A stretch of DNA of 64,000 nucleotides from Escherichia phage UE-S1. The notes beneath the pieces were generated by a model, which had not been told where the DNA came from, ran no database searches, and saw only the letters and a list, made by a program, of their open reading frames with translations. The DNA is taken from sequence record ON568341.1; one strand, 5' to 3'. A program made the translations under genes and the position numbers. The number at the start of each line of letters is the position of its first letter. The stretch's first letter is position 1. Shown one piece after another: positions 1,397 through 56,744 of this stretch.

Positions 1397-1878
1397 TGAA
1401 CCGAAAGTACAGAGAAACTATGAAGTTCGCTAAGGAGTGTTTAGAGACATTTGATTTCATTTTCGATAACAACGAATCACTAGGTCATTACTTCGTAATT
1501 ACAAAGGAAGAAGATAATAGATACAAGTGTCAAAGATTAGGATACAGTATTGAGTTATCCTTAATGAGTGATGGTTTGATAAACTCCGTCTATGAATCTG
1601 GTAAGACAGATTACATTTCATTTAGATCATGGAGTGATAATATAATGTTCTTGAGTCCTAATGGAAGTAAATATCCATTCATTAATGATTTATCAGAAGA
1701 AAGTTACTTTCAAAACAGTTTAATTTATACAGAAAAAGAACTCAAAATGTTATTCATAATGTCGTACTTTAAAAAGTACTGTAAATTTAAATCATTATCT
1801 TTTGAGATTTCTGCGATGAAAGTATTCATTAAAAATGTAAAAGAATTAAAGAGGGCTTTTAATGTACATAGAAAATGA
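1384..1878 (+). CDS. family-1 paralog
   Basis: 164 aa ORF; SEESYFQNSLI motif; start overlaps upstream stop. Confidence 0.7.
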   Translation: MERLMNRKYRETMKFAKECLETFDFIFDNNESLGHYFVITKEEDNRYKCQRLGYSIELSLMSDGLINSVYESGKTDYISFRSWSDNIMFLSPNGSKYPFINDLSEESYFQNSLIYTEKELKMLFIMSYFKKYCKFKSLSFEISAMKVFIKNVKELKRAFNVHRK

Positions 1879-2404
1879 GAATGTAAAATGCATCACTGAC
1901 ATTTGTATAAAATTAATGAAAATTTTCATTAACCCAAAATACAAGACTCGTTCTTTACGTCATAATATTGATGAGCATTGTACCATTAATATCCTAGGTA
2001 GTATTCTTGATGTAAAATATGATGGTAAACTGTTATTCGGTATAAGAGAAGAGAAAATGGATGATGCATTCTTTTCTTGTAAAGATAAATTTGAACCTTC
2101 TGATTATAAAGTAATTATTCGTGATGATAGCATCTATATTAGTAGTGATTATTCAAATTACTTCGATAAAATATACACTGAAAACGTTGATTACCATTAT
2201 GAAATGCTAGATTTACCAGTAACAGACATTGATATGGAGAGAATCAAATTTTCATTATCAGATAATGAGTACTTAGGTATACAAACATATTATTCACTAC
2301 AAGGAAAGATTCCACCTGCTATGTATATAAGGATTGAGATTGGTAATGTATTCAATGATAAGGTTATATCAATTGCTGATAAAATATTGAGGGTTGAATT
2401 ATGA
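1862..2404 (+). CDS. family-1 paralog (divergent, motif degenerate)
   Basis: 180 aa ORF in the same tandem array and size class; motif position reads SDNEYLGIQTY. Confidence 0.6.
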   Translation: MYIENENVKCITDICIKLMKIFINPKYKTRSLRHNIDEHCTINILGSILDVKYDGKLLFGIREEKMDDAFFSCKDKFEPSDYKVIIRDDSIYISSDYSNYFDKIYTENVDYHYEMLDLPVTDIDMERIKFSLSDNEYLGIQTYYSLQGKIPPAMYIRIEIGNVFNDKVISIADKILRVEL

Positions 2405-2964
2405 ATGGCCATGATTACCAATTCCATAGACTAGAATTTAGACACTGTGTTGCATATGCAAAAACATTAATGTGCATCATTGACACTCTTTCATCCGAAC
2501 AATTTCGTAAGGATAATGATTTATTGCTGAAAAAAGGTCGTATAACATCATCCGATATCGGTATTGAACTATTTGTTGAAATCAGTGTTGATACCGGAGA
2601 CAGTACAAGGGCTGGTTGTATAGGTCATATTGGTACACATTGTTTCACATGGAATCCAAATACAAGTCAAGTTAGAATTGATTATAGAAATTCACGTTGG
2701 GTTGATCTTAGTACTGAATCAGATTTAGAATCAGTTATGTTCCAGCTAAGTTTAATTCACGATCCTAATGAACTTCTTTATATTATTACTTTCAGTTATC
2801 TGTTACAAAACTACGATAGTCCATCAGGGTTTTTCATAGAATCAGATATAGATGAAATTATGGAAGAGATTCCTAGTTTAAAGAATATTCTGGAAAAAAA
2901 AGATTTCTATAATGACTTCAGAGATTTATACGACATGCACTTGGAGTTATTTAAGAATGGATAA
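2401..2964 (+). CDS. family-1 paralog
   Basis: 187 aa ORF; ATGA overlap with upstream; LESVMFQLSLI motif. Confidence 0.7.
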   Translation: MNGHDYQFHRLEFRHCVAYAKTLMCIIDTLSSEQFRKDNDLLLKKGRITSSDIGIELFVEISVDTGDSTRAGCIGHIGTHCFTWNPNTSQVRIDYRNSRWVDLSTESDLESVMFQLSLIHDPNELLYIITFSYLLQNYDSPSGFFIESDIDEIMEEIPSLKNILEKKDFYNDFRDLYDMHLELFKNG

Positions 2965-3475
2965 AGATGATATTCTAATTAGACTAGTTCAAAGTTTGAT
3001 AAAGTTCGCAAATAATGATATCAATACATACAAAGTAGGTGATATTGAATTCAAATCATTTGGTATGTACGGTGATGACGAAACATATTATGCTTCAATG
3101 AAATTTCAAGAATTTCACGAGATGTTAATATCGTTATCATACGAAGATGTTGACCCAAGATGGAGTTCCAGTATTTCACTATCGAGAATGGTAATTCGTA
3201 GTAAGCATCGTTACATTTCGTCAAAGAATACTCCTAACTTGATTAATATTGTGTTGAATGAAAATACAAACCCCCTATCTAAATATGATATCGTACCTTT
3301 AACCGATGAAGCAATTTTTCAATTGAGTACCATTTGTGATGAAGATGTGATATCATGTATGAAAATTTATGAGAAAGTTGGGGGTGATATTCCCATGAAC
3401 TATTACCTAACTATAGATGAAACGTATCTCCAAGATGATGTTCTGGCGTACATTGACAGTGTTTTACCAAAATAA
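2957..3475 (+). CDS. family-1 paralog
   Basis: Track ORF 2912..3475; likely start ATGGATAA at 2957 overlapping upstream stop; TDEAIFQLSTI motif. Confidence 0.65.
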   Translation: MDKDDILIRLVQSLIKFANNDINTYKVGDIEFKSFGMYGDDETYYASMKFQEFHEMLISLSYEDVDPRWSSSISLSRMVIRSKHRYISSKNTPNLINIVLNENTNPLSKYDIVPLTDEAIFQLSTICDEDVISCMKIYEKVGGDIPMNYYLTIDETYLQDDVLAYIDSVLPK

Positions 3476-3497
3476 AGACCCGTTATGGGTCTTTTTG
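3475..3497 (+). terminator. rho-independent terminator candidate
   Basis: Hairpin AGACCCGTTATGGGTCT followed by T-rich run directly after the stop codon. Confidence 0.55.
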
Positions 3498-3551
3498 TGT
3501 TTATGGCTTTACAAGAGCATTCAGGTGTGTTATACTTGATTTCAAATAGAG

Positions 3552-4130
3552 TTGGAGGAATCTATGAGTACTGAATTAATTAAAGAAGTTACCTTACTTC
3601 TGAAGCATTGTTTTAAGTTCATTCCTGATACTGGTTCACGCCAGTACATTAAAGTTAATGAGAAATATAACATCAATATCCTTGTATCTGAAACTGCGAG
3701 CAGCTATGCTAACATTGAGTTGGATTCTGAAGAAAAATATACAGTATTACAAATCATAGCAGATGTACAACGTAAACAAGATTATCGTTCTTCATTTGAC
3801 AACGATTATCTGTGTGTTTGCTCAAACTTCAGTGAGAATAAAATTGTGTATAAGAATTTATACACACATGAAGTGATTGATACATATAATTATAAAATTT
3901 CATCTGATGAATACAATGTGCTAATGTTCAACGCAAACCTTTTGTATGATGCCAGTACTGTACGCTGTTTAGAGTTAGCATATAAAATTCCAAAGATCAT
4001 GGAAAGAAAAGATTTGATTCACTTTAAAACTATTTTAAAATACAGTACAAAAGAATTAGAAGATTTAGTACAGGCTCTTAAGAATTTCATTAATGAACAT
4101 GTACCTGTTAAATTCGAGGATGCACAATGA
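3552..4130 (+). CDS. family-1 paralog (divergent)
   Basis: 192 aa ORF; RBS GGAGG upstream; same size class; degenerate motif EYNVLMFNANLL. Confidence 0.6.
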   Translation: MEESMSTELIKEVTLLLKHCFKFIPDTGSRQYIKVNEKYNINILVSETASSYANIELDSEEKYTVLQIIADVQRKQDYRSSFDNDYLCVCSNFSENKIVYKNLYTHEVIDTYNYKISSDEYNVLMFNANLLYDASTVRCLELAYKIPKIMERKDLIHFKTILKYSTKELEDLVQALKNFINEHVPVKFEDAQ

Positions 4131-31143: not shown

Positions 31144-31371
31144 ATGAAAGTAATTCAAGTTATGGTAGAAAAATACCAAACTGAAGATGGTCGTATTTTT
31201 GATTCAGCTAAACAAGCTGAACATCATGAACGTATTATTTCGGGTACACGTAAAGTGTGTCCTACATGTAATGGAACACAACAAGTGCCGTCAGAAGATT
31301 ACCGCAGCTTTTATGCTTGTCCATACTGTGATGGGAAAGGCTATGTAGAAAAACAAGAGGTATGGAAATGA
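31144..31371 (+). CDS. small zinc-ribbon protein
   Basis: 75 aa; CPTCNG ... CPYCDGKG. Confidence 0.5.
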   Translation: MKVIQVMVEKYQTEDGRIFDSAKQAEHHERIISGTRKVCPTCNGTQQVPSEDYRSFYACPYCDGKGYVEKQEVWK

Positions 31372-32991: not shown

Positions 32992-34413
32992 ATGAGCATT
33001 TTAGCAATTCTTGAAAGCATTAAAAATACTAGCAGTACTCTGGGTAAAAAAGCTATCCTTGAACAAAACAAAGATAACCAAACATTACAAAAAGTACTGA
33101 AATATACACTAGACCCTTCAATTGTAAGTGGGTATAAAAAGCTACCACAAGCTGATGATGTCTACCAACATATGACATTAGATGAAGCAATTGATAAGCT
33201 AGAATGCATTTACAAACGTGGTGTAACCGGAAATGCTGGACGTGACTTTATTGCTTCAGTACTGGGTTCTGTATCTGAAGATGATCAGGAAGTTCTACGA
33301 AGAATGCTCACTAAGAACCTTGATTGTGGTATTCAAGAAAAGAACTGCAATGATGTGTTCGGGAAAGGTTTTATCAAAGACGAACCATACATGCGTTGTT
33401 CTTTGATTGACAAAAAGACTGCAAAGAACATTAACTTCAAAGATTATGGTTATGCTATATCAGAAGTGAAAATGGATGGTCAGTACTTGAACCACGTTGT
33501 CATTAATGGTTCATTAACTTCTACATCCCGTAATGGTAAACTATACGACTTCCTGGGTTGTCGTGATGGTGAGATGGCAGGTCTTGCTCACATCATCCAA
33601 AGTAAAGATGAACGTTTTAGTAGTGGTGTAGTCTTTATGGGTGAAGGTGTAGTACTGGACAATGATGGAGAAACCATTCTCCCACGCACTACTGGCAATG
33701 GTATAATTCAGAAAGCTGGAAAAGATAGTATCAGTCAGAATGAAGCAATGCGTACTGTATTTGTTCTATGGGATGTTGTTCCATATGATGCATTTTGTGA
33801 AGGTGTATGGGATGTAAAACGTAAAGAACGTCGCGAGATCTTAGTAGATGCAATTAACGAACTCAGTAGTGATTTTGTTCGTATGGTTGGATTCCGTAAA
33901 GTTCTAAACATCAAAGAAGCATTTGAGTACAATAGTGAACTAATGAACGAAGGTGAAGAGGGTTCAGTACTGAAATGTGAAGATGGTATCTGGAAATCTC
34001 ACACTTCTCCTAAGCAATTGAAAATGAAACTTAAAATGCAATTGGACTTGCGTATTGTTGGTTTCAATGAAGGTGAAGGTAAGCGTAAAGGTAGCCTTGG
34101 TTCTTTACAACTGGAAAGTGCTTGTGGTACATTGAAAGTTAATGTAGGTACTGGAATTAAAGAGAAAGACGCAGAATGGACGTTTAAAACCATTTGGGAA
34201 AGAATGCAAGAACTCATTGGTCAAGTAGTAACCGTGCAGTGCAATGATATAGTGTATGATCAGCGTACTGGCGAACCATCACTATTTTTACCTGTGTTTA
34301 TTGAATTTAGATTTGACAAAAACACTTGTGACGACTATACTCGTATCTTAGAAATTCGTGATAGTGCTGTTGAAGTTTTTAGTAATGCTATCATAAAATC
34401 GTTAACTAACTAA
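32992..34413 (+). CDS. ATP-dependent DNA ligase (T4 gp30-like)
   Basis: 473 aa; N-terminus ILAILESIKNTSSTLGKKAILEQNKDN matches recalled T4 ligase; adenylation motif KMDGQ. Confidence 0.85.
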   Translation: MSILAILESIKNTSSTLGKKAILEQNKDNQTLQKVLKYTLDPSIVSGYKKLPQADDVYQHMTLDEAIDKLECIYKRGVTGNAGRDFIASVLGSVSEDDQEVLRRMLTKNLDCGIQEKNCNDVFGKGFIKDEPYMRCSLIDKKTAKNINFKDYGYAISEVKMDGQYLNHVVINGSLTSTSRNGKLYDFLGCRDGEMAGLAHIIQSKDERFSSGVVFMGEGVVLDNDGETILPRTTGNGIIQKAGKDSISQNEAMRTVFVLWDVVPYDAFCEGVWDVKRKERREILVDAINELSSDFVRMVGFRKVLNIKEAFEYNSELMNEGEEGSVLKCEDGIWKSHTSPKQLKMKLKMQLDLRIVGFNEGEGKRKGSLGSLQLESACGTLKVNVGTGIKEKDAEWTFKTIWERMQELIGQVVTVQCNDIVYDQRTGEPSLFLPVFIEFRFDKNTCDDYTRILEIRDSAVEVFSNAIIKSLTN

Positions 34414-34424
34414 AAAAGAATAAT

Positions 34425-35495
34425 ATGTATACTATTGATGATGAAATAATTAATAATAAATTTATTTCTGATACATACAATGCATATGATATATCTAAAA
34501 TAATTCTCAAGGAAAAGTATCCTCAATTTGATTGGGATACTATTGACCTTGAGAATTTAAAAACTGATGATTATTGTAAAAATGACATTATTGGATATAT
34601 ACAAGATAAAAAAAATATAAAATTGTATGGCATTAAATGTGAAAAATGCTCCCAAAATTACAAACTAAATGGTCTAGGGATATATTTTTCATATAAAGGA
34701 AATTTAGTTAAGGGTAAGTGTCCATGTAATTGTAGTAAGCATAAATTCTACACAAAATATCAAAATATTTTTTTGATTAATGAAAAAGCAAAAACGTTAA
34801 ATTATATTTTTTGTGGTTTTGTTGATGAGTATAAAGGTAAAAATAAAACAAAAATAAAATTATATTGTCCAAATAACAAACATGGTATATGGGATACAAC
34901 ATTAATATATAGTTTTATAGAATCAAACAATGGATGTATTAAATGTGCACATGAATCAGTCGGGTTAAGTAATAGTATAACTTTCGCAGATCATATAAAA
35001 GATTTTTTATCAACTGGTAAGTATAATAAAAATACAAAATTTTGGAAATCTAATAAGATTGACAGTAGAGGATATAATAATTATTGGTTTTGCCAATGTC
35101 CAATATGTAAAACTACAGTTGAGGCATCTACTACAAATCTTAAAAGTGGGAAAGTATCATGTTTATGTAACGGGAACACCCAGCAACAGGGATATATAAA
35201 TTTAGTACTTGACAATGATATACCAATTGCATTAAAATATGGAATAACATCTAATACAGAAGTCAGAGAAAAAACACAAAATCGCAATTCAATCTATGAT
35301 ATTGTAAACTGTGGTGTCTGGGAGTTTGAATCTTCTTTGTTATGTAAATCAGCAGAAGCGGAATGTAAAAGAACTTTCTCACCAGTACTTGAAGCTCGTG
35401 AAATGAAAGATGGATATACTGAAACTACATCACCATTAGATATTGACAAAATCATTGAAATATATGAAAATTGGGGTGGTGTGCGAATAAAATAA
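34425..35495 (+). CDS. Cys-rich zinc-ribbon protein with possible GIY-YIG-like C-terminal domain
   Basis: 356 aa; repeated CxxC / CxC pairs; C-terminal GYINLV...KYGITSN resembles GIY...YIG spacing. Confidence 0.4.
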   Translation: MYTIDDEIINNKFISDTYNAYDISKIILKEKYPQFDWDTIDLENLKTDDYCKNDIIGYIQDKKNIKLYGIKCEKCSQNYKLNGLGIYFSYKGNLVKGKCPCNCSKHKFYTKYQNIFLINEKAKTLNYIFCGFVDEYKGKNKTKIKLYCPNNKHGIWDTTLIYSFIESNNGCIKCAHESVGLSNSITFADHIKDFLSTGKYNKNTKFWKSNKIDSRGYNNYWFCQCPICKTTVEASTTNLKSGKVSCLCNGNTQQQGYINLVLDNDIPIALKYGITSNTEVREKTQNRNSIYDIVNCGVWEFESSLLCKSAEAECKRTFSPVLEAREMKDGYTETTSPLDIDKIIEIYENWGGVRIK

Positions 35496-35507
35496 CCGGA
35501 GGTAATT

Positions 35508-36299
35508 ATGAAATTTGTTGTAACGTCAGACGTACACGGTGGCACTGATTACCTCCATAGTGGTGATTACAGTGATACAGTACTGTTCATTGCTGGAGAC
35601 TTCGATGAAGTTAAACGCAGTCGTTACCGTACTGGTATCGAATCACTATGTAAGCAGTTCAAAAATGTAGTGCTGGTTCCTGGCAATCACGAATACTATG
35701 GTTCTAATATCCACAAAACGCATAAAGTTCTATCTGACATGCAAGATGAGATTCCCAATTTCATCTTTTTGCAAAACAAATTTGTATGGCTGGATGGGGT
35801 ACTTCTTGTTGGTAGTACTCTGTGGACAGACTTCGATAAAGGTAACTCTTTGACTAAGTTTGATGCTCGTCAAAAGATGAATGATTATAAACATATCCGT
35901 CATGGAACAACATCCGAGCCTTGGCGTAAGAAGTTGACACCAGATGATACGGAGTTCATGCATTATAAAGATAAACAATTTATTAAAAATTCTATTGACA
36001 CGGCTCGCTTTATGCATGATAATGATTTCAAGGTAATTGTGATTACACATCACGCACCAAGTTATCAAAGTGTTTCACCAAAATATAAAAATGATTCCCT
36101 GAATGGCTGTTACTGTTCAGATATGGATCAGTACATTGAAGATTTGGGTGCTGATATTTGGATTCATGGTCATGTTCATAGTAGCTTTGACTACCACATT
36201 GGTAAGACACGTATCATTTGTAATCCACGAGGCTATGAATCGTACAGTGGTGCTTGTGAGAATTTTGATTACAATCCTAAATTAGTATTTGAAATTTAA
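35508..36299 (+). CDS. metallophosphoesterase (calcineurin-like)
   Basis: 263 aa; SDVHGG, GDFDE, GNHEYY, HHAP, GHVH motifs. Confidence 0.7.
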   Translation: MKFVVTSDVHGGTDYLHSGDYSDTVLFIAGDFDEVKRSRYRTGIESLCKQFKNVVLVPGNHEYYGSNIHKTHKVLSDMQDEIPNFIFLQNKFVWLDGVLLVGSTLWTDFDKGNSLTKFDARQKMNDYKHIRHGTTSEPWRKKLTPDDTEFMHYKDKQFIKNSIDTARFMHDNDFKVIVITHHAPSYQSVSPKYKNDSLNGCYCSDMDQYIEDLGADIWIHGHVHSSFDYHIGKTRIICNPRGYESYSGACENFDYNPKLVFEI

Positions 36300-38214: not shown

Positions 38215-38661
38215 ATGTCTAATGCACAACACAAAGAAGGTTATGACGCGTTTAAAAACAAAGTAGTTTTTAACAATGAACAGCTAAAATCACAGCACCC
38301 ACTATTCCGTCAAGGTTATCGTGCTGCACAAGCTGAAGCTATGAAGAAAAACAACGTAACATTCCCAACAACTCTGTATGATATTCCTAAACGTCCATCA
38401 GTGTTTAAAGCAGAATGGACTGACATTATGGCAGCAACTAAACGTCCTCGTTTTGCTAAACTTCACACTGATGAAGGTCGCTGGATGTTGATGGGTATTA
38501 TGAAAGCAGTCGAAAATCAATCACATAAGATTACTCGATATAAAGATGTTATTGCTATGGTTGATAAAGCATTTGATCTTGTTCTACAATATGGTTATGA
38601 CGAAGGTGTTCTAACTATTGCTGATTGTGAGCAATATCAGTACACCCCATATCAAAAATAA
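38215..38661 (+). CDS. hypothetical protein
   Basis: Track ORF 38122..38661; in-frame ATG near 38215 immediately after upstream stop. Confidence 0.55.
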   Translation: MSNAQHKEGYDAFKNKVVFNNEQLKSQHPLFRQGYRAAQAEAMKKNNVTFPTTLYDIPKRPSVFKAEWTDIMAATKRPRFAKLHTDEGRWMLMGIMKAVENQSHKITRYKDVIAMVDKAFDLVLQYGYDEGVLTIADCEQYQYTPYQK

Positions 38662-38670
38662 TATAACAAA

Positions 38671-38700
38671 TAGGAATCCTAGTATGGGATTCCTATTTTT
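38671..38700 (+). terminator. rho-independent terminator
   Basis: TAGGAATCC-TAGTATG-GGATTCCTA hairpin followed by TTTTT. Confidence 0.6.
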
Positions 38701-38765
38701 ATTACTGCACGTCATCTTTTGATATAAATTTGAATACATTGTTGTTTATAATCTAGAGGGACATA

Positions 38766-39290
38766 ATGAAATACACACACCTAAGTATAGATGATACTAA
38801 TATCTGGTTAGATAACATAATCAAGACATTAGAATTAATTAAACTTACATTACAGAAATCAATTGATATTGAAACTAATATTAAACACGAAATATTAAAT
38901 TATTATCACAGAAACAAATATTGTACGTTTTTCTCTAAATTAATTTATGGATTATATGATAGTGAAGATATTTGTATCGGTTACAGTACTGGTATTTGCT
39001 TTACAATTAATGGTTTTATGAATGATTTAAATTTCCGTCTTTCAGAAGAACAGCAAAAGTTTCGTATATTTTGTGAGAATATTATCGATAAAGATGAAAT
39101 ATCATTTGTTATTGAATTAAATAGAACATGGTCTACATATGCAGATAAACCATTTGAAATTAATGAAACAGATGTGTTAAACTATATTCGAGTCATGAAA
39201 ATTCATGATTTGTGTAAAAATGCATTGTTAAGTATTGGAGCTTATAATGAAACATACGACTTGGTTGAAGATAGCAGAAGTAGTTGCTGA
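38766..39290 (+). CDS. hypothetical protein
   Basis: 174 aa; GAGGG RBS. Confidence 0.55.
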   Translation: MKYTHLSIDDTNIWLDNIIKTLELIKLTLQKSIDIETNIKHEILNYYHRNKYCTFFSKLIYGLYDSEDICIGYSTGICFTINGFMNDLNFRLSEEQQKFRIFCENIIDKDEISFVIELNRTWSTYADKPFEINETDVLNYIRVMKIHDLCKNALLSIGAYNETYDLVEDSRSSC

Positions 39291-39726
39291 GGAAAGTAAA
39301 TGTATTTCACAAAAAGTTGGTTGTGTTATTGTTAAAAATAATCGAGTATTGAGTACTGGATATAACGGTACACCATCAAAGCAACCTAACTGTTGTGATG
39401 TTAATAAACATCTCGTAAACAATGGTCAATTTCAAAATTGGATTGATGAAGATGCAAAACACTTACATCACGAGTGGAGCAACATTCATGAGATTCATGC
39501 GGAAATGAATGCATTACTATATAGTTCACCACTAGAACGTCAGGGTGCAACACTTTACACCACACTTCAACCGTGCTATACTTGTTCTAAGTTAATCGCT
39601 GGTAGTGGTATTTCTCGTGTAATTTACGAAAAATCTTATCCTCGCACTCCACCAGAAGCTATTAAAGTACTGGAAGATGCTGGGATTATTGTTAATTGCA
39701 TTTATGATAAGGGTCTTGATAAATGA
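39247..39726 (+). CDS. cd: dCMP deaminase (T4 Cd-like)
   Basis: Track ORF 39235; ATG at 39247; ESKC.S.KVG.VI.KN.R..STGYNG, HAE and PCxxC zinc motifs align with recalled T4 Cd. Confidence 0.9.
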   Translation: MKHTTWLKIAEVVAEESKCISQKVGCVIVKNNRVLSTGYNGTPSKQPNCCDVNKHLVNNGQFQNWIDEDAKHLHHEWSNIHEIHAEMNALLYSSPLERQGATLYTTLQPCYTCSKLIAGSGISRVIYEKSYPRTPPEAIKVLEDAGIIVNCIYDKGLDK

Positions 39727-40007: not shown

Positions 40008-40281
40008 ATGTTTTTACGTAATATGTATAGACAATTATGTAGTTTGATTTTGCGAATCATATACATAGTACAAAAACCTTCAACACTTGCTTCTTCATCT
40101 TTCAATTTAATGAAGAACGTATCATCTCTTAGATTATTAAAATATATAGTTTACAGAAAATAACTTCTCACTATTAATTTTAGCACCTGTAATTTCGATA
40201 CCATCAATAGAAAAAGGTTAATGCAATTATACTTCACGAAGGAAAGTGCATGAAAATTATCATGCACTATATTATTAAAAT

Positions 40282-42183
40282 TTACGCACTGATTGTTACA
40301 GTTGCAGTATCTGTTTTATTACCATCAGCAGTAGCCACTGTAATGACTACAGAACCTTCTTCTAGAGCAGTTACTAATCCCTCATCACTAATAGATACTT
40401 TAGTAGGTTCATCTGCACTATAAGTTACTGATTTGTTAGTTGCGTTAGATGGAAGAACTTCTGGAACTAGTTGAACTGTTTTAGTACCTGATAGTGAAAG
40501 TTCAGTAGTTTTAGGTGTTAAACTAACACTGGATACAGGAACTGGAATATTAACAGTAATAACACCTTGACCTGTTTTACCACTTCCATCAGCAGCAGTT
40601 GCGATAATGTTTGCAGTACCATTAGTTAGTGCAGTTACAATACCAGTACTAGCATCAACTTTTGCTACAGCAGGTTCACTAGAAGACCATGTTACAGATT
40701 TATTAGTTGCGTTAGATGGAAGAACTTCAGCAGCCATTGCTTGAGTTGCTTTAACAGCAGTCAATGTTTTAGTTGCTGGAGTAACATTAATAGATGCTAC
40801 AGGAACTGGAATATTAACAGTTACCACGCAAACTTTAGTAAATCCACCATCAGATGTGGTTGCTGTAATATTTGCAGTACCGTTTGCAACAGCAGTGATT
40901 AACCCAGTTGGACTTACCGTTGCGACACCCTCAGCAGAAGTAGTGTATGAAATATCTTTACGACGAGCGTTATCTGGAATAACAGATGCAGTTAATTGTT
41001 GAGTAGCACCTACCGAAGTTAGGGTTGCGGTCAACGGAGTCATATTAATACCAGTTACTGGGATCGTTACATCAATCACTGATTCAGCAGTTTTAGCACC
41101 ATCATCAGTGGTAACAGTAATAGTTGTAGTACCGTTATCAACCGAAGTTACTAGACCAGTATTACTAACTTTTGCTACGTCTGGATATGAAGAAACATAT
41201 GAAACTGCTTTATTGGATGCAGTTGCAGGAGCAACGGTTGTTTCTAATTGTTTAGTATCACCTAATGTTGAGAATGTATAAGTACTAGGAGTCATAGTGA
41301 CACCAGATACCGGTGTTTTCACAGTGATAGTAGTAGTATCAGTTTTAGCACCATCTTCGGTTGTTGCTGTAATCACCACTGTACCGTTAGCAACACCAGT
41401 TACTAGACCAGAAGTAGGGTTAACGGTTGCTACATCAGGTGTTGCTGAAGACCATGTAACGTTTTTATTAGTTGCATCATCAGGAGATACTGTAGCCGTT
41501 AATTGTTGAGTACCGCCAACGTTAATTGTTGCAGTTTTAGGAGAAACAATAACACCACTAACTGGAGTTGTTACGGTAAATGCACAAACATCGGTGAAAC
41601 CACCATCATGAGTAGTAACTGTTACATTTGCATTACCATTAGCACGGGCAATTGCTAAACCAGTTTCAGCATCAACTTCAACTATTGTTGGAGCAGAGGA
41701 ACTATAACTTACTGTTTTATCATTTGCATAATCTGGATCAATTGTAGCTGATAGCTGTTGTGTACTACCAACTTTAAGTGCTACAACTTTAGGTGAAATA
41801 ATAACACCATCAACTGGAGTAGTATAATCACGTTTAACCACACGACCATTGTTCAATTTAATAATACGACCCATATAAAGAGTAGTATATCCCTTACTAA
41901 TCCCATCATCTACATAAATCATGAATGAATTGTCTTGAACCATATTAATTGCGTCTACTGGTTTAACGGAATTTGGAATGTCGATACCACGGGTATCATA
42001 CCAACACATGGAAACTTTGTAATAGATATCACCATTATCATTTATGAGATCATAAACGTTACTGGAACGTTGACGGTTAATATATAAAGTTTCGGTTAAC
42101 ACCTTACCATCGATTTTAGCGACAGAAACTTTAATACCACCAATACCAAATGGCAATTTACCTTCACTAGATATTGCTTTCAT
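40282..42183 (-). CDS. Ig-like (Big_2) repeat protein, putative virion decoration or adhesin
   Basis: 633 aa on minus strand; about 120 aa N-terminal domain followed by about six tandem repeats (VSPKTATINVGGTQQLTATVSPDDATNK..W.S....VATV); TATAAATA motif upstream. Confidence 0.65.
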   Translation of the reverse strand: MKAISSEGKLPFGIGGIKVSVAKIDGKVLTETLYINRQRSSNVYDLINDNGDIYYKVSMCWYDTRGIDIPNSVKPVDAINMVQDNSFMIYVDDGISKGYTTLYMGRIIKLNNGRVVKRDYTTPVDGVIISPKVVALKVGSTQQLSATIDPDYANDKTVSYSSSAPTIVEVDAETGLAIARANGNANVTVTTHDGGFTDVCAFTVTTPVSGVIVSPKTATINVGGTQQLTATVSPDDATNKNVTWSSATPDVATVNPTSGLVTGVANGTVVITATTEDGAKTDTTTITVKTPVSGVTMTPSTYTFSTLGDTKQLETTVAPATASNKAVSYVSSYPDVAKVSNTGLVTSVDNGTTTITVTTDDGAKTAESVIDVTIPVTGINMTPLTATLTSVGATQQLTASVIPDNARRKDISYTTSAEGVATVSPTGLITAVANGTANITATTSDGGFTKVCVVTVNIPVPVASINVTPATKTLTAVKATQAMAAEVLPSNATNKSVTWSSSEPAVAKVDASTGIVTALTNGTANIIATAADGSGKTGQGVITVNIPVPVSSVSLTPKTTELSLSGTKTVQLVPEVLPSNATNKSVTYSADEPTKVSISDEGLVTALEEGSVVITVATADGNKTDTATVTISA

Positions 42184-42219
42184 ATACTTTCCTTTATAAA
42201 TTGTATTGTATTGTTATAT

Positions 42220-42227
42220 TATTTATA
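42220..42227 (-). promoter_or_regulatory. T4-type late promoter motif TATAAATA (minus strand)
   Basis: Reverse complement reads TATAAATA about 40 nt upstream of the minus-strand ATG at 42183. Confidence 0.45.
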
Positions 42228-42493
42228 TTATAACAAAATTATTTTAGTATTAAAAAAGGAGTTCTAATGCTCCTTTAAAATATAAAGGAACATACTGTGT
42301 AAATCTGGTTTGGTCAGGTTAATCTTTCAGAGAGAAGGAAGTAGTGAATGACATTTTATCATTAAAATCATCTCCTTATCTTTAAAATGGAATTGTAAAC
42401 TGCCTCTTAATATGATACCATAGTTCAAATGGTAAATCAATGAACTTAACAAAAAAAACTTGATACTACAGTCATAATTGTTCAGTTTTGTGC

Positions 42494-42522
42494 TTGACAT
42501 AATTAATCAATTATTGTACTAT
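42494..42522 (+). promoter_or_regulatory. sigma70-like promoter candidate
   Basis: TTGACA, 17-nt spacer, TACTAT; 36 nt upstream of the 42558 start. Confidence 0.45.
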
Positions 42523-42557
42523 TAATAATGTTCCTTAACTCAAATCCGAGGTAATTA

Positions 42558-43163
42558 ATGAAACGATTATTGAAAGAGATTATACAAACCGTTGTTATAA
42601 TTGCTGCATTAAACTTTCCTGCGGCGGCAGAAGTTTCAAAAAAAGCATCTGTTTTTCTATTAAATGATCATGTTGGGTCAATTGATGGTGAACTAAATGA
42701 TAAAACTGTACAAGATGTGGAGCAGTTGTGGAAAGAAAAAAAATTTAAAATTTTAACAATTACATCACCTGGTGGTGATTTTGATGCTGGTATTAAAATG
42801 GGAAATTTTGTTAGAGACAATGGTATAAATTTAATTGTTTCTAGATATTGCAATTCAGCATGTACTGTGGTATTCTTTAGTGTGCCCCCTGAAAAGCGAT
42901 ATATGACAAATCAATCAGTACTGGGATTACATAACATTTCGATCAAAAGTAACGTTAGAGATAGGGATAATACCTTTGTATCTGTTAGACAATTATCAAC
43001 ATTTACTGAAGAAATGGCAACAAAAGTAGGATTTTTATTTACACTATATTCAGCTAATGGAATTCCACCTAGCGTTCTATATAGAGTTAGTCGTGCACGT
43101 GGTGAAGATGTTGTTATCTTAACAAAAAAAGACCTAATTCATTACGGTTCGGTAAATCCATAA
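42558..43163 (+). CDS. secreted ClpP-fold (S14/S49-like) protein with N-terminal signal peptide
   Basis: 201 aa; hydrophobic N-terminus ending AAAE; TSPGGDFDAG resembles ClpP NSPGG box; RYCNSACTV at the Ser-box position. Confidence 0.45.
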   Translation: MKRLLKEIIQTVVIIAALNFPAAAEVSKKASVFLLNDHVGSIDGELNDKTVQDVEQLWKEKKFKILTITSPGGDFDAGIKMGNFVRDNGINLIVSRYCNSACTVVFFSVPPEKRYMTNQSVLGLHNISIKSNVRDRDNTFVSVRQLSTFTEEMATKVGFLFTLYSANGIPPSVLYRVSRARGEDVVILTKKDLIHYGSVNP

Positions 43164-54267: not shown

Positions 54268-54404
54268 TATTTGTGCAAATAAAAACCAATGTGACTTTTC
54301 CTTGATATATATCAAGAGAAATAGCCTGTTCTGACGCTATAATATTGTCTGGTGATATTAAATATCTTCACCCCCAGATGATTTCAAAATACAAGGAATG
54401 TACA

Positions 54405-56210
54405 ATGCAGCTAGATAAATTATATAATGACGTAACGAATTTCCTAAATCAGAGTAATACAGATCTCACAAATGAAAATGCGAACAAAGATGCGAAGTGC
54501 GTCAATACACACAGGGATTTACTTGCAGGTATCCTATCTAAACATTATTCACAAGATGTTATCCCAAATGAACTAATGCAGTGGCATAATGATGGTTATG
54601 GACATATTCATGATTTAGACTACTATATCAGTCCATTAACCAACTGTTGCTTAGTCAACTACCCAGATATGCTAAAAAATGGATTTACTATTGGCTGTGC
54701 TAAAATTGAAGAACCAAAAAGTTTTAGTGTTGCATGTACAGTACTAACACAGATTGTACAAGCTGTAGCTAGTTCACAATACGGAGGTCAATCGTTGGCT
54801 CACATTGATGTCGGGTTGGAACCTTACGTTAAAAAGTCATGGGATAAACTATTAGAAAAACAAAAGAAATATAATCTAAGTGATGAATACATTGAAGAAG
54901 AATTACGAAAAGAAGTATACGATGGATGTCAAACATTACTTTATCAAACTAATTCAATGATTAGTACTAATGGTCAAGCTGCATTTATTTCTCTTAGTTT
55001 AGGTTTGAATACTTCCAAATTTGGTAAATTAATCACCGAACAGTACTTAAAAGTTCATGAGAATGGTTTAGGTAAAGATAAGATTACTCCAGTGTTTCCT
55101 AAAGTGATTTTCTTTTTACAAGATGGTATAAACATGAATACCAATGATTGTAATTATGACCTTAAACAGTTAGCTATGCGTTGTGCATCAAAACGAATCT
55201 ACCCAGACTTTGTTTCAGTTCCATTAAATCACAAAGTGACGGGAAGTAGTGGCACTGCTGTAACACCGATGGGCTGTCGTTCATTCTTAGGAAAATGGGA
55301 AGATTCAAATGGAAATGAACAATATAACGGTCGCTTCAATTTAGGTGTAGTTTCTATCAATTTACCACTAATTGCTCTTGAAAGTGCTACAGATGGAGAG
55401 TTTTTTGATAAGATAGATGAGCATATGAATATTGCATATCGTGCTCAGATGAACCGCGTAGAGCGTTTAAAAGGTACAAAAGCGAAACAGAATCCAATTT
55501 TGTTTATGGAAGGTGCATTAGCACGTTTAGATGCAGAAGAGACTATTGACAAGCTATTTTACAATGGTTATGCTAGTATTAGTATTGGTTATGTTGGACT
55601 TGTTGAATGTTCGGAAATCCTCACTGGTTCTATCAGTAAGGAGTTTTGTATGTCAGTACTGAATTATATGAAAGTAAAATGCGATGAGTTTAAAAAAGAA
55701 AGTAATATTGCTTTTAGTTTATATGGAACTCCAGCAGAGTCACTTTGTTATAAATTTGCACGTTGCATTGAAGCAAAGTATCCGTCTGTTCTAAAACGTA
55801 ATTATATTACAAATTCATTCCATCAACCAGTATGGGTTGAAAGTTCTGCTTTTGAAAAGTGGGATTATGAGGAAAACTTTGCTTATCTAAGCAATGGTGG
55901 TAATATTAGCTATGTCGAAACACCAAACTTAACAAACAACATTCAAGCACTTGAAACATTAATCAATTATGCCTATAAAAAAATTCCATATTTTGGAATA
56001 AACCAGCCTATAGATCATTGTCATAAATGTAATTTTGAAGGTGAATTCAGCGTCGATAAAAACGGTTTCCACTGTCCAGTTTGTAATAATAGAGATGAAA
56101 AATCTATGTCAGTTATTCGAAGAGTTAGCGGATATCTTAGTGCACCAAATAGTCGCCCATTCAATAAAGGAAAGCAAGATGAAGTGATTCAGAGAATTCG
56201 CCATTTATAA
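54405..56210 (+). CDS. nrdD: anaerobic ribonucleoside-triphosphate reductase NrdD (class III RNR)
   Basis: Track ORF 54345 (TTG); ATG at 54405 after AAGGA; long collinear match to recalled T4 NrdD (NENANKD, NCCLV, VASSQYGGQ); C-terminal Zn ribbon CHKC..CPVC and glycyl-radical motif RRVSGYL. Confidence 0.9.
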   Translation: MQLDKLYNDVTNFLNQSNTDLTNENANKDAKCVNTHRDLLAGILSKHYSQDVIPNELMQWHNDGYGHIHDLDYYISPLTNCCLVNYPDMLKNGFTIGCAKIEEPKSFSVACTVLTQIVQAVASSQYGGQSLAHIDVGLEPYVKKSWDKLLEKQKKYNLSDEYIEEELRKEVYDGCQTLLYQTNSMISTNGQAAFISLSLGLNTSKFGKLITEQYLKVHENGLGKDKITPVFPKVIFFLQDGINMNTNDCNYDLKQLAMRCASKRIYPDFVSVPLNHKVTGSSGTAVTPMGCRSFLGKWEDSNGNEQYNGRFNLGVVSINLPLIALESATDGEFFDKIDEHMNIAYRAQMNRVERLKGTKAKQNPILFMEGALARLDAEETIDKLFYNGYASISIGYVGLVECSEILTGSISKEFCMSVLNYMKVKCDEFKKESNIAFSLYGTPAESLCYKFARCIEAKYPSVLKRNYITNSFHQPVWVESSAFEKWDYEENFAYLSNGGNISYVETPNLTNNIQALETLINYAYKKIPYFGINQPIDHCHKCNFEGEFSVDKNGFHCPVCNNRDEKSMSVIRRVSGYLSAPNSRPFNKGKQDEVIQRIRHL

Positions 56211-56384
56211 TATAGTATAACATGATTACCTCGATTTAACATAAATATTTAAAATTAAATCGAGTAAACTAATTATGAAATGAAAAATGAACAAAGAATC
56301 TAATTTTTTGTTCATTTGTTTATGAAATATCGTTTGATGATAGAATATTAAAAAAAACACTGAAATAAAATTAAGGAGAAATAT

Positions 56385-56744
56385 ATGTTAGAAGCTAAAC
56401 AGGTAATGTCAGGTGAACATCGTGGAACTATTTTTCTAAAAGAAGATGATGTTGTAAAAATTGTAGTATCTAAAACTTTTTCCGAAGATGATGAAGTACT
56501 ATTGAGTACTTTTGATGGTGAGGTTCTACGTGATGTACAGATCAAACATGAACCAGTAATTGAAGGTGGTCAGCATTTAAATGTAAATGTCTTATCTAAA
56601 GAACAACTCATTGATGCACAAAATAATCCAGAAAAATATCCGCAACTTACCATTCGTGTCAGTGGTTATGCTGTTCGTTTCAATTCACTAACAAAAGAAC
56701 AACAAGATGATGTAATTTCTCGTACCTTTACAAAGGAAATTTGA
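56385..56744 (+). CDS. grcA: GrcA/YfiD-like autonomous glycyl-radical cofactor (T4 Y06I-like)
   Basis: 119 aa; AAGGAG RBS; C-terminus [10 protein letters not shown]...[32 protein letters not shown] nearly identical in pattern to recalled E. coli GrcA. Confidence 0.85.

Follow-up and report, generated by a model that had tools for sequence, protein, structure and literature searches.

A probable free-standing CapR-zinc-finger/T5orf172 homing endonuclease gene beside the DNA ligase gene of Escherichia phage UE-S1

Escherichia phage UE-S1, an Asteriusvirus-type jumbo phage of E. coli, carries an open reading frame, UES1_412, that probably encodes a free-standing homing endonuclease of CapR-zinc-finger/T5orf172 type (GIY-YIG superfamily) and is inserted in the short spacer between the ligase and metallophosphoesterase genes. 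A free-standing homing endonuclease or mobile nuclease had been suggested here in a first-pass annotation made from the sequence alone, and this reading is supported by the sporadic occupancy of the locus, the constant linkage of the gene to ligase, the mosaic structure of the flanks and the fold of the nuclease domain.

The 356-aa frame is genuine, reading from start to stop codon on the plus strand of the window (the whole stretch of DNA analysed, 64,000 nt); it is the ORF that the UE-S1 record names UES1_412 and annotates as "hypothetical protein". Pfam and PHROG matches to the adjoining genes bear out the earlier description of its position between two conserved enzyme genes, with ligase upstream and phosphoesterase downstream (Table 1). 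The UES1_412 protein itself matched PHROG 681 'endonuclease' (E = 4e-45); an NCBIfam search gave no meaningful matches, the PADLOC defence models gave no match, and tblastn within the window found no paralogues. The insert is foreign and AT-rich in base composition: GC content is 26.7% over the whole gene and 23.8% over codons 1-240, as compared to 37% in the flanking genes. The protein contains 18 cysteines (5.1%, against 1.8% overall), and of the window's 78 plus-strand ORFs with 100 aa or more none is richer in them. Sequences resembling promoters occur at 34313-34341 and 35443-35471; such matches number 27 against a shuffled expectation of 19.8 +/- 3.7, close to it and not clearly higher.

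Table 1. Coordinates of UES1_412, its predicted domains and its surroundings in the UE-S1 window.
Feature	Position	Strand	Details
ATP-dependent DNA ligase gene	32992-34413	+	473 aa; PF01068; PHROG 114, E = 3e-119
Recoded ligase 3' tail	34377..34413	+	borders the insertion
Inserted/replaced segment relative to empty-site relatives	34380..35497	+	1118 nt here, 40 nt in slurp01
UES1_412	34425-35495	+	ATG 34425, TAA 35493-35495; 356 aa; probable free-standing homing endonuclease gene
N-terminal region, aa 1-65	34425..34619	+	two predicted helices, then a beta hairpin (AlphaFold model)
Three CapR-homology zinc-finger repeats (predicted), aa 66-250	34620..35174	+	Pfam PF21817
GIY-YIG-fold, T5orf172-like nuclease domain (predicted), aa 251-356	35175..35492	+	
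Shine-Dalgarno GGAGG	35498-35502	+	ahead of the metallophosphoesterase gene
Calcineurin-like metallophosphoesterase gene	35508-36299	+	PF00149; PHROG 1649; downstream flank, undamaged by the insertion

The N-terminal region, modelled by AlphaFold with helices at aa 6-17 and 20-31 (pLDDT above 90), is an extension of 65 aa that in an alignment of homologues is confined to the ligase-linked subclade (P0001-P0007, P0001 being identical to the UES1_412 protein). It is followed by repeats that score 59.1 bits with the Pfam CapR family (PF21817; cut-off 24.2; E = 5e-16), in 3 stretches of which the best is at aa 113-175; the same family was matched by 23 of 23 close homologues. The first-pass description of the protein as Cys-rich stands, while its count of at least eight CxxC/CxC pairs was slightly high: we counted seven at most, comprising three CxxC (72-75, 171-174 and 225-228) plus four CxC, some of which overlap (99-101, 101-103, 223-225 and 246-248). 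Because the cysteines are conserved among homologues, those of the three repeats being invariant or nearly so (at least 90% conserved in the first and third), the sequence suggests three zinc sites: C72/C75/C101/C103, C148/H153/C171/C174 and C225/C228/C246/C248. The first repeat, C72xxC75-25-C101xC103, fits the CapR set of CxxC followed after 24-26 aa by CxC (PMC8096241); the third is C225xxC228-17-C246xC248, and the second is a variant built on C148/H153/C171/C174. In CapR, the CxxC...CxC cysteines are required for DNA binding, and PLE CapR is the sole member of the family for which zinc-dependent, sequence-specific DNA binding has been demonstrated (PMC8096241). We predict that aa 66-250 of UES1_412 form a sequence-specific DNA-binding module.

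The C-terminal domain contains the segment in which a resemblance to GIY-YIG nucleases was originally noticed, GYINLV (aa 256-261) followed by KYGITSN (aa 271-277). Y257, K271 and G273 within it are invariant in 92 relatives, as are R281, E311, G330, E333 and T334. Checked against the GIY-YIG catalytic set, Y257, R281, E311 and E333 are invariant, and the position of the YIG tyrosine is taken by K271, as T5orf172 has it in its 'K-[IV]-G' motif. Modelled alone (pLDDT 93.8), the domain is predicted to have the GIY-YIG alpha/beta fold, a three-stranded sheet flanked by helices; BFVD matches at TM 0.9 include proteins named 'CapR homology domain-containing', 'Homing endonuclease', 'GIY-YIG domain-containing' and 'T5 Orf172 domain-containing', and its top structural matches are SLX1-type structure-specific nucleases. 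The full-length model is a beads-on-a-string arrangement (pTM 0.55) unfit for global search, and Foldseek returned nothing below E = 0.27 when it was compared to the PDB; the C-terminal domain was remodelled separately. A search of PDB sequences with the family profile gave no match at E <= 10.

At the sequence level, the nuclease domain is 46% identical to residues 289-396 of ICP1 gp130 (E = 2e-26), a protein that passes the Pfam T5orf172 model (PF10544, clan GIY-YIG; gathering score 20 bits) with 21.2 bits against the threshold of 20 over residues 295-387, and 45% identical (E = 3e-32) to P0008, a homologue scoring 24.5 bits against the same 20. UES1_412 itself has no T5orf172, MUG113 or GIY-YIG Pfam match at E <= 1 over its full length, nor even at E <= 10 when the nuclease domain is searched in isolation. 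T5orf172 is reached at E <= 0.01 in only 10 of the 92 relatives, the other 82 falling short. Thus, the claimed similarity to GIY-YIG/T5orf172-like nucleases is upheld by the fold model and by the identity to the gp130 region that passes T5orf172, a Pfam match of its own being absent. A word-indexed homologue search with a 112-aa domain yielded one candidate and no match, and an exhaustive phmmer search with the nuclease domain yielded 478 representatives. From comparisons to UE-S1, in several of which synonymous sites are near saturation so that the figures are rough, dN/dS comes to 0.08-0.29 for the nuclease domain, which indicates purifying selection there, and to 0.3-0.55 for the zinc-finger region.

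Across relatives, the gene is sporadic at this locus. The phage collection contains 37 records of related jumbo phages; the locus is empty in 35 of these and is occupied by a homologue in TH47 and Klebsiella phage KP13-7 alone. The ligase and phosphoesterase genes are adjacent in 34 of the empty-locus genomes (EJP2 has another downstream gene), and in 32 relatives both flanks could be matched across a 2230-nt span that is without the gene. Three matched pairs of phages differ in its presence (UE-S1/slurp01, L010/A4 and L011/EJP2, the member with the gene named first), with ligase proteins that are 97%, 97% and 99% identical, respectively. The presence/absence polymorphism proposed as a check on the homing endonuclease reading is therefore borne out, and neither of the outcomes named beforehand as speaking against that reading was seen: similarity to a nuclease fold is found, and the gene is far from being conserved at the locus in every genome. 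Where present, its position is constant: in TH47, L010, L011-L014 and KP13-7 the homologue stands immediately downstream of the ligase gene though the next gene varies, and this linkage spans Asteriusvirus lineages (PBECO4-like and EJP2-like) as well as Alcyoneusvirus. More widely, tblastn found homologues in 376 phage records, including ICP1 'tcgB putative homing endonuclease' beside terL.

Comparison with empty-site relatives delimits the insert and reveals a mosaic around it. Colinearity with slurp01 in blastn ends at 34379 and restarts at 35498, and the downstream flank, GGAGGTAATTATG, is conserved in every relative, whether the insert is present or absent. On the upstream side, 18 mismatches to slurp01 fall in the 37 nt before the ligase stop codon (34374-34410), as compared to 0 in the preceding 80 nt, and the ligase protein ends in AIIKSLTN in UE-S1 and in SILESLG in slurp01; this recoded tail may be a co-converted or a cleavage-resistant variant of the target. 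Compared with TH47 and slurp01, the UE-S1 ligase gene is a mosaic; TH47 has, in place of the 3' two-thirds of the gene, sequence of only 50-65% identity; and between L010 and A4 mismatches rise toward the junction. The ligase 3' end is probably the homing target region. In the L011/EJP2 pair the ligase end is nearly unchanged, which makes a target within the ligase gene a less than confident assignment; the junction comparisons single out no cleavage site. Synonymous variation at 34273-34345 of the ligase gene is low (0.16-0.20) and equally low elsewhere in the gene; not being distinctive, it was rejected as a target signature. We found no terminal inverted or direct repeats and no target-site duplication around the insert, and no intron or other RNA family matched it in Rfam, which together rule out a transposon-like element or an intron.

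The behaviour of the family suggests how UES1_412 would home; we likewise infer that it acts as a nuclease, what its target site is and where this lies, and that homing continues. When UE-S1 and a relative that is without the gene co-infect one cell, the three zinc-finger repeats would bind the empty genome at or near the ligase 3' end and the following spacer, and the C-terminal GIY-YIG-type domain would cut nearby, with Y257, R281, E311 and E333 as the expected residues. Recombinational repair on the UE-S1 template would then copy the gene, together with variable lengths of ligase and phosphoesterase flank, into the cut genome. The UE-S1 copy would be protected from its own cutting because, we propose, its site is no longer intact after the insertion and the recoding of the ligase tail.

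Could UES1_412 instead be, like PLE CapR or I-TevI in its autorepressor role, a domesticated regulator that now chiefly controls transcription by binding DNA near the ligase/phosphoesterase junction, its own nuclease inactive or vestigial? CapR is indeed a repressor descended from the same endonuclease family (PMC8096241), there are promoter-like sites on both the ligase side and near the end of the gene, and a lysine replaces the canonical YIG tyrosine. However, CapR is without a nuclease domain, whereas that of UES1_412 is intact, modelled with high confidence and the most conserved part of the protein by dN/dS, with eight invariant residues that include R281, E311 and E333; the promoter-like matches are near the shuffled level; and a useful regulator is not expected to be absent from 35 of 37 related genomes. 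We consider a regulator very unlikely, and give similarly low credence to the proposal that the gene encodes a weapon, its zinc fingers aiming the nuclease at the DNA of a competitor phage, satellite or host, with the ligase neighbourhood incidental. The model for such a weapon is ICP1 Odn, a T5orf172 nuclease re-targeted at the PLE replication origin (PMC8263062); domain shuffling is known in the family (PMC10448857), and the UE-S1 allele is itself a chimera of unique zinc fingers on an L010-like 3' end. Yet five divergent alleles, spread over three phage lineages, all lie directly after the ligase gene regardless of the downstream gene, a fixed position that site-specific homing predicts and that is unexpected for a free weapon gene. 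The flank gradients are moreover typical of co-conversion, and no PADLOC defence model recognises the protein.

A housekeeping part in recombination or repair, such as the resolution of Holliday junctions in partnership with the ligase encoded next door, would suit the SLX1-type nucleases found as closest structural matches and the earlier proposal that T5orf172 serves jumbo phages as a nuclease for recombination or for resolving junctions (PMC7824862). It is hard to reconcile with close relatives nearly all of which replicate without the gene, with the foreign base composition of UES1_412, and with three zinc-finger repeats whose predicted sequence specificity suits recognition of a site over recognition of a structure; we regard this role as extremely improbable.

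A homing endonuclease in this position has its closest described counterparts in ICP1, whose putative homing endonucleases gp130/tcgB, gp121, gp165, gp174 and gp53 are of the T5orf172/CapR type (Netter et al. 2021, PMC8096241; Barth et al. 2023, PMC10448857). Like UES1_412, these combine N-terminal repeated CxxC...CxC CapR zinc fingers with a C-terminal T5orf172-type nuclease (36% identity to UES1_412 over aa 101-356, 46% in the nuclease domain), are free-standing and variably present beside a gene essential to DNA metabolism or packaging, and show domain shuffling among alleles. The host differs, ICP1 being a Vibrio phage and UE-S1 an E. coli jumbo phage (Asteriusvirus), and so does the neighbour, which here is DNA ligase; the word 'ligase' is not mentioned in PMC10448857. 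Unlike the ICP1 set, UES1_412 has the extra 65-aa N-terminal helical region, and unlike gp130 it is missed by Pfam T5orf172.

The biochemically characterised T5orf172 nuclease is Odn (Gp88) of ICP1, in which E180 is required for cleavage by experiment (PMC8263062). Odn and UES1_412 have K-x-G, R, E and E in the same order with spacings of 10/32/22 and 10/30/22, respectively, and E311 is matched to E180 by this motif spacing, without a significant alignment. By hhalign, the UES1_412 family at full length aligns to Odn-type CapR+T5orf172 relatives with 99.9% probability, over the zinc fingers and only halfway into the nuclease domain; the C-terminal domain alone against Odn-type T5orf172 domains gives E of 0.05-0.15, which is not significant, and comparing the family profile with Odn as a single sequence gave no significant match either. 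BLASTP of the C-terminal part of Odn against the UES1_412 protein and against gp130 found nothing. Odn differs further in targeting a satellite replication origin and in having a RepA_N-like DNA-binding domain (Pfam DUF6945, PF22182) where UES1_412 has zinc fingers.

The free-standing GIY-YIG homing endonucleases of T4 type (Seg proteins) and I-TevI likewise join a GIY-YIG catalytic fold to a separate DNA-binding module (one that includes a zinc finger in I-TevI) and are inserted between or within conserved DNA-metabolism genes. In UES1_412, by contrast, the nuclease domain is C-terminal rather than N-terminal, a lysine replaces the YIG tyrosine, there is no intron, and a tandem CapR zinc-finger array takes the place of NUMOD or helix-turn-helix modules. 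PLE CapR, the capsid-operon repressor of a Vibrio cholerae satellite, has the CapR zinc-finger domain with CxxC...CxC in common with UES1_412 (PMC8096241) and differs in having lost the nuclease domain and become a transcriptional repressor.

The zinc-finger modules of UE-S1, TH47, L010, L011 and KP13-7 differ by 50-70%, and the UE-S1 allele joins a unique zinc-finger module, which is very AT-rich, to a nuclease 3' end 97-98% identical to that of the L010 allele; the UE-S1 ligase tail is likewise uniquely recoded. We raise tentatively, as a somewhat doubtful extension, the idea that the alleles of the ligase-linked clade encode competing endonucleases in contest for a single site. Should one allele be able to recognise a site that another occupies and displace it there, this would drive mosaic replacement of the essential ligase gene of the kind found in TH47, and would amount to natural specificity switching by zinc-finger module swaps in a GIY-YIG-type endonuclease.

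UES1_412 is a clear but ordinary case of a well-known phenomenon, in a family already described. A previously unannotated gene, not discussed in the UE-S1 genome paper (PMC12805682), gains a putative function in a phage proposed for therapy. Pfam T5orf172 misses 82 of the 92 relatives, and therefore annotation pipelines under-call such nucleases. Together, these findings place the CapR/T5orf172 family of ICP1 also beside DNA ligase in E. coli and Klebsiella jumbo phages, where the ligase-linked endonuclease site marks a boundary of genetic exchange.

The window comes from a jumbo phage of the Asteriusvirus type and is 93–95% identical in DNA to slurp01 (LT603033), PBECO4 and other relatives. 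The product of the ORF under study exactly matches 'hypothetical protein UES1_412' of Escherichia phage UE-S1 (358,076-bp contig), which is not discussed in the UE-S1 genome paper (PMC12805682). The gene begins 11 nt from the ligase stop codon and ends 12 nt before the metallophosphoesterase gene; Pfam and PHROG matches for both neighbors bear out the first-pass annotation, which had placed it between two enzyme genes. That annotation also called the protein Cys-rich, and its 18 cysteines (5.1%, as compared to 1.8% overall in window ORFs) give it the highest cysteine fraction among the window's 78 plus-strand ORFs of 100 aa or more; the CxxC/CxC pairs are present, though "at least eight" slightly overstates their number, CxxC occurring three times and CxC four times with partial overlap. 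Both C-terminal segments it had singled out, GYINLV (residues 256–261) and KYGITSN (271–277), are found. Elsewhere in the window, a 75-aa protein with two CxxC pairs resembles the DnaJ central zinc-finger or Anti-TRAP type.

Features of the UES1_412 locus and of the surrounding window
Feature	Position	Strand	Details
75-aa protein	31144-31371	+	PF15777 E = 7e-7, PF00684 E = 4e-5; both under gathering scores
ATP-dependent DNA ligase gene	32992-34413		PF01068; PHROG 114, E = 3e-119
Ligase segment	32992-33110		100% to TH47
Ligase segment	about 33470-34180		100% to slurp01
Ligase segment	34183-34270		85–88% to slurp01
Ligase 3' end	34273-34345		97–100% nt identity even in relatives ~80–85% identical elsewhere
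Promoter-like site in ligase 3' end	34313-34341		TTGACA-17-TATACT
UES1_412 ORF	34425 (ATG) to 35495 (TAA)	+	356 aa
Predicted zinc site 1	C72/C75/C101/C103		spacing CxxC-25-CxC
Predicted zinc site 2	C148/H153/C171/C174
Predicted zinc site 3	C225/C228/C246/C248
Promoter-like arrangement in UES1_412 3' end	35443-35471		65 nt upstream of phosphoesterase start
Calcineurin-like metallophosphoesterase gene	35508-36299		PF00149; PHROG 1649
Segment differing from slurp01	40012-42756		2.7 kb; 0.8 kb in slurp01
633-aa protein	40282-42183	-	six Big_2 Ig-like repeats
nrdD	54345-56210
Segment differing from slurp01	56119-56733		slurp01 counterpart only 90 nt
119-aa ORF	56385-56744	+	glycyl-radical domain PF01228, E = 1e-17

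UES1_412 carries three CapR homology domains (PF21817, 59.1 bits; cut-off 24.2) and matches PHROG 681 'endonuclease' (E = 4e-45). Conserved residues suggest three zinc sites, the first with the spacing of the CapR motif, whose cysteines are required for DNA binding in PLE CapR (PMC8096241). The whole-protein AlphaFold model is locally confident (pLDDT 91) with a pTM of 0.55, as expected for domains arranged as beads on a string.

Modeled alone, the C-terminal domain (residues 245–356; pLDDT 93.8, pTM 0.84) adopts a beta-beta-alpha-beta-alpha-alpha topology, and the lower rows of its structure-search list contain the GIY-YIG domains of PD-T4-3 (4.3), EF2693 (3.9), I-TevI (3.9) and UvrC (3.2). 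Among predicted viral structures it matches, at TM 0.8–0.95, proteins named 'CapR homology domain-containing', 'Homing endonuclease' (phage UB), 'GIY-YIG domain-containing' (K64-1) and 'T5 Orf172 domain-containing'. The T5orf172/GIY-YIG likeness raised in the first pass finds no direct Pfam match, T5orf172, MUG113 and GIY-YIG all failing with whole UES1_412 (E ≤ 1) and with the isolated domain (E ≤ 10); it does hold through homologs above the T5orf172 threshold. With residues 289–396 of ICP1 gp130 ('tcgB, putative homing endonuclease'), a region that passes T5orf172 at 21.2 bits (threshold 20), the domain shares 46% identity (E = 2e-26); with a further relative, P0008, which passes at 24.5 bits, it shares 45% (E = 3e-32). 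Since homology to recognized members is, at the level of sequence, clear though the direct test fails, we assign the domain to the GIY-YIG superfamily, as part of a divergent T5orf172-like clade largely missed by the Pfam model, consistent with the nuclease-like C terminus originally proposed.

An exhaustive phmmer search with this domain recovered 478 cluster representatives (E ≤ 0.001); in all of the best 150 it is C-terminal, in proteins of about 120–590 aa. In a sample of 92 representatives, 80 have CapR domains, only 10 match T5orf172 at E ≤ 0.01, and Y257, K271, G273, R281, E311, G330, E333 and T334 do not vary. The only T5orf172 nuclease with demonstrated DNA cleavage is Odn (ICP1 Gp88), whose E180A mutant is inactive (PMC8263062). 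UES1_412 shares Odn's motif order, with K-x-G to R, R to E and E to E distances of 10/30/22 as compared to 10/32/22 in Odn, which points to E311 as the predicted catalytic glutamate. Direct comparison of the two C-terminal domains is not significant; the 99.9% probability of the full-length profile comparison is driven by the zinc fingers, its alignment going no further than the nuclease domain's first half.

The gene is polymorphic between related phages, as the first reading had anticipated, and is not universal at this locus: it is missing in 32 relatives of the phage collection that match both flanks across a 2230-nt span, and the site is also empty in Turkey5, JNE01 and EJP2. Colinear alignment to slurp01 is interrupted between 34379 and 35498, where 1118 nt in the window stand against 40 nt in slurp01. 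Three matched pairs with and without the gene, UE-S1/slurp01, GCA_036253495.1/A4 and the metagenomic contig L011/EJP2, have ligase proteins 97%, 97% and 99% identical, respectively. All close homologs (TH47, GCA_036253495.1, metagenomic contigs L011–L014 and Klebsiella phage KP13-7) lie directly 3' of a DNA ligase gene, and this linkage persists in the EJP2-like lineage and KP13-7 although the downstream gene there is not the phosphoesterase. More distant family members occupy other loci in other phages. JNE01 has a 29%-identical homolog (38453–39652 of its record) ~12 kb from its empty ligase site, and phage UB a more distant 257-aa 'Homing endonuclease' (BFVD match A0A2Z5HAQ3) at another locus; several sites have therefore been colonized in Asteriusvirus. 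No UES1_412 paralogs were found in the window.

On its right the insert has a sharp edge, and all genomes compared keep GGAGGTAATTATG, which holds the Shine-Dalgarno and start of the phosphoesterase gene. On the left, 18 of the final 37 nt of the UE-S1 ligase differ from slurp01 while the preceding 80 nt are identical, and mismatch density between GCA_036253495.1 and A4 rises approaching the junction. In TH47 (1501–3996 of its locus), the ligase gene is 100% identical to that of UE-S1 over its first ~120 nt and only 50–65% identical to all relatives over its 3' two-thirds. This divergent part adjoins TH47's own endonuclease allele, an ORF that opens at a TTG and is ~50 aa short at the N terminus; as the record carries an UNVERIFIED mark, a frameshift or decay may be the cause. 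Mosaicism is also seen in the ligase gene of UE-S1 (see table). The conserved stretch at its 3' end shares a near-identical 12-mer, TTGACAAAATCA, with the 3' end of the endonuclease gene, where it again has a promoter-like arrangement; synonymous-site suppression at the stretch is not unique within the ligase gene. GC content is 23.8% in UES1_412 codons 1–240, 32.8% in codons 241–356 and 37% in both flanking genes. A repeat-bounded mobile element was rejected, with no terminal repeats or target-site duplications, as was an intron or other RNA element, with no family match.

The window differs from slurp01 elsewhere too. The 633-aa protein in the 2.7-kb segment runs against otherwise plus-strand surroundings; the ORF just 3' of nrdD resembles the autonomous glycyl-radical cofactor GrcA/YfiD, and its segment is another presence/absence difference, given the short slurp01 counterpart. 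Conversely, slurp01 158486–159060 (574 nt) and 169361–169730 (369 nt) have no counterpart in the window.

The UE-S1 allele is, from its sequence, chimeric: its last ~45 codons are 97–98% identical in nucleotides to GCA_036253495.1 and 90–92% to TH47, its first 240 codons only 45–60% to any allele. Such a structure agrees with published domain shuffling in the CapR/T5orf172 family (PMC10448857) and could also result from gene conversion reaching inward from the right flank. Between alleles, dN/dS is 0.08–0.29 in the nuclease domain and, in comparisons involving UE-S1, 0.3–0.55 in the zinc-finger region, rough values because synonymous sites are close to saturation.

The best explanation is that UES1_412 is a free-standing homing endonuclease gene, and the first-pass reading as a homing or mobile nuclease was essentially right, given the demonstrated architecture, fold, homology, polymorphism, constant locus and mosaic flanks. 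A domesticated regulator like CapR is disfavored because the nuclease domain is intact and strongly conserved and because most relatives lack the gene. A weapon of the Odn kind, aimed at a satellite or competitor, is disfavored because position is unchanged for five divergent alleles in three lineages, and a housekeeping recombination nuclease (PMC7824862) because distribution is sporadic and base composition foreign.

Cleavage by the homing endonuclease, its target and its present activity are inferred. When UE-S1 shares a cell with a phage lacking the gene, the zinc-finger array would bind that phage's genome at the ligase end and the spacer behind it. After a nearby cut by the GIY-YIG-type domain, repair on the UE-S1 template would carry the gene, together with flanking markers, over into the cleaved genome; UE-S1 would be protected by the insertion and its recoded ligase tail. 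The ligase 3' end is nearly unchanged in the L011/EJP2 pair, and the target in that lineage most likely straddles the stop codon/spacer junction rather than lying in the ligase interior.

The CapR/T5orf172 family and its behavior were known before from ICP1 and other phages, through work that mentions neither ligase nor these jumbo phages (PMC8096241, PMC10448857). UES1_412 now has a predicted functional annotation, and a whole ligase-linked clade, under-detected by the Pfam T5orf172 model, is recognized in jumbo phages of E. coli and Klebsiella.
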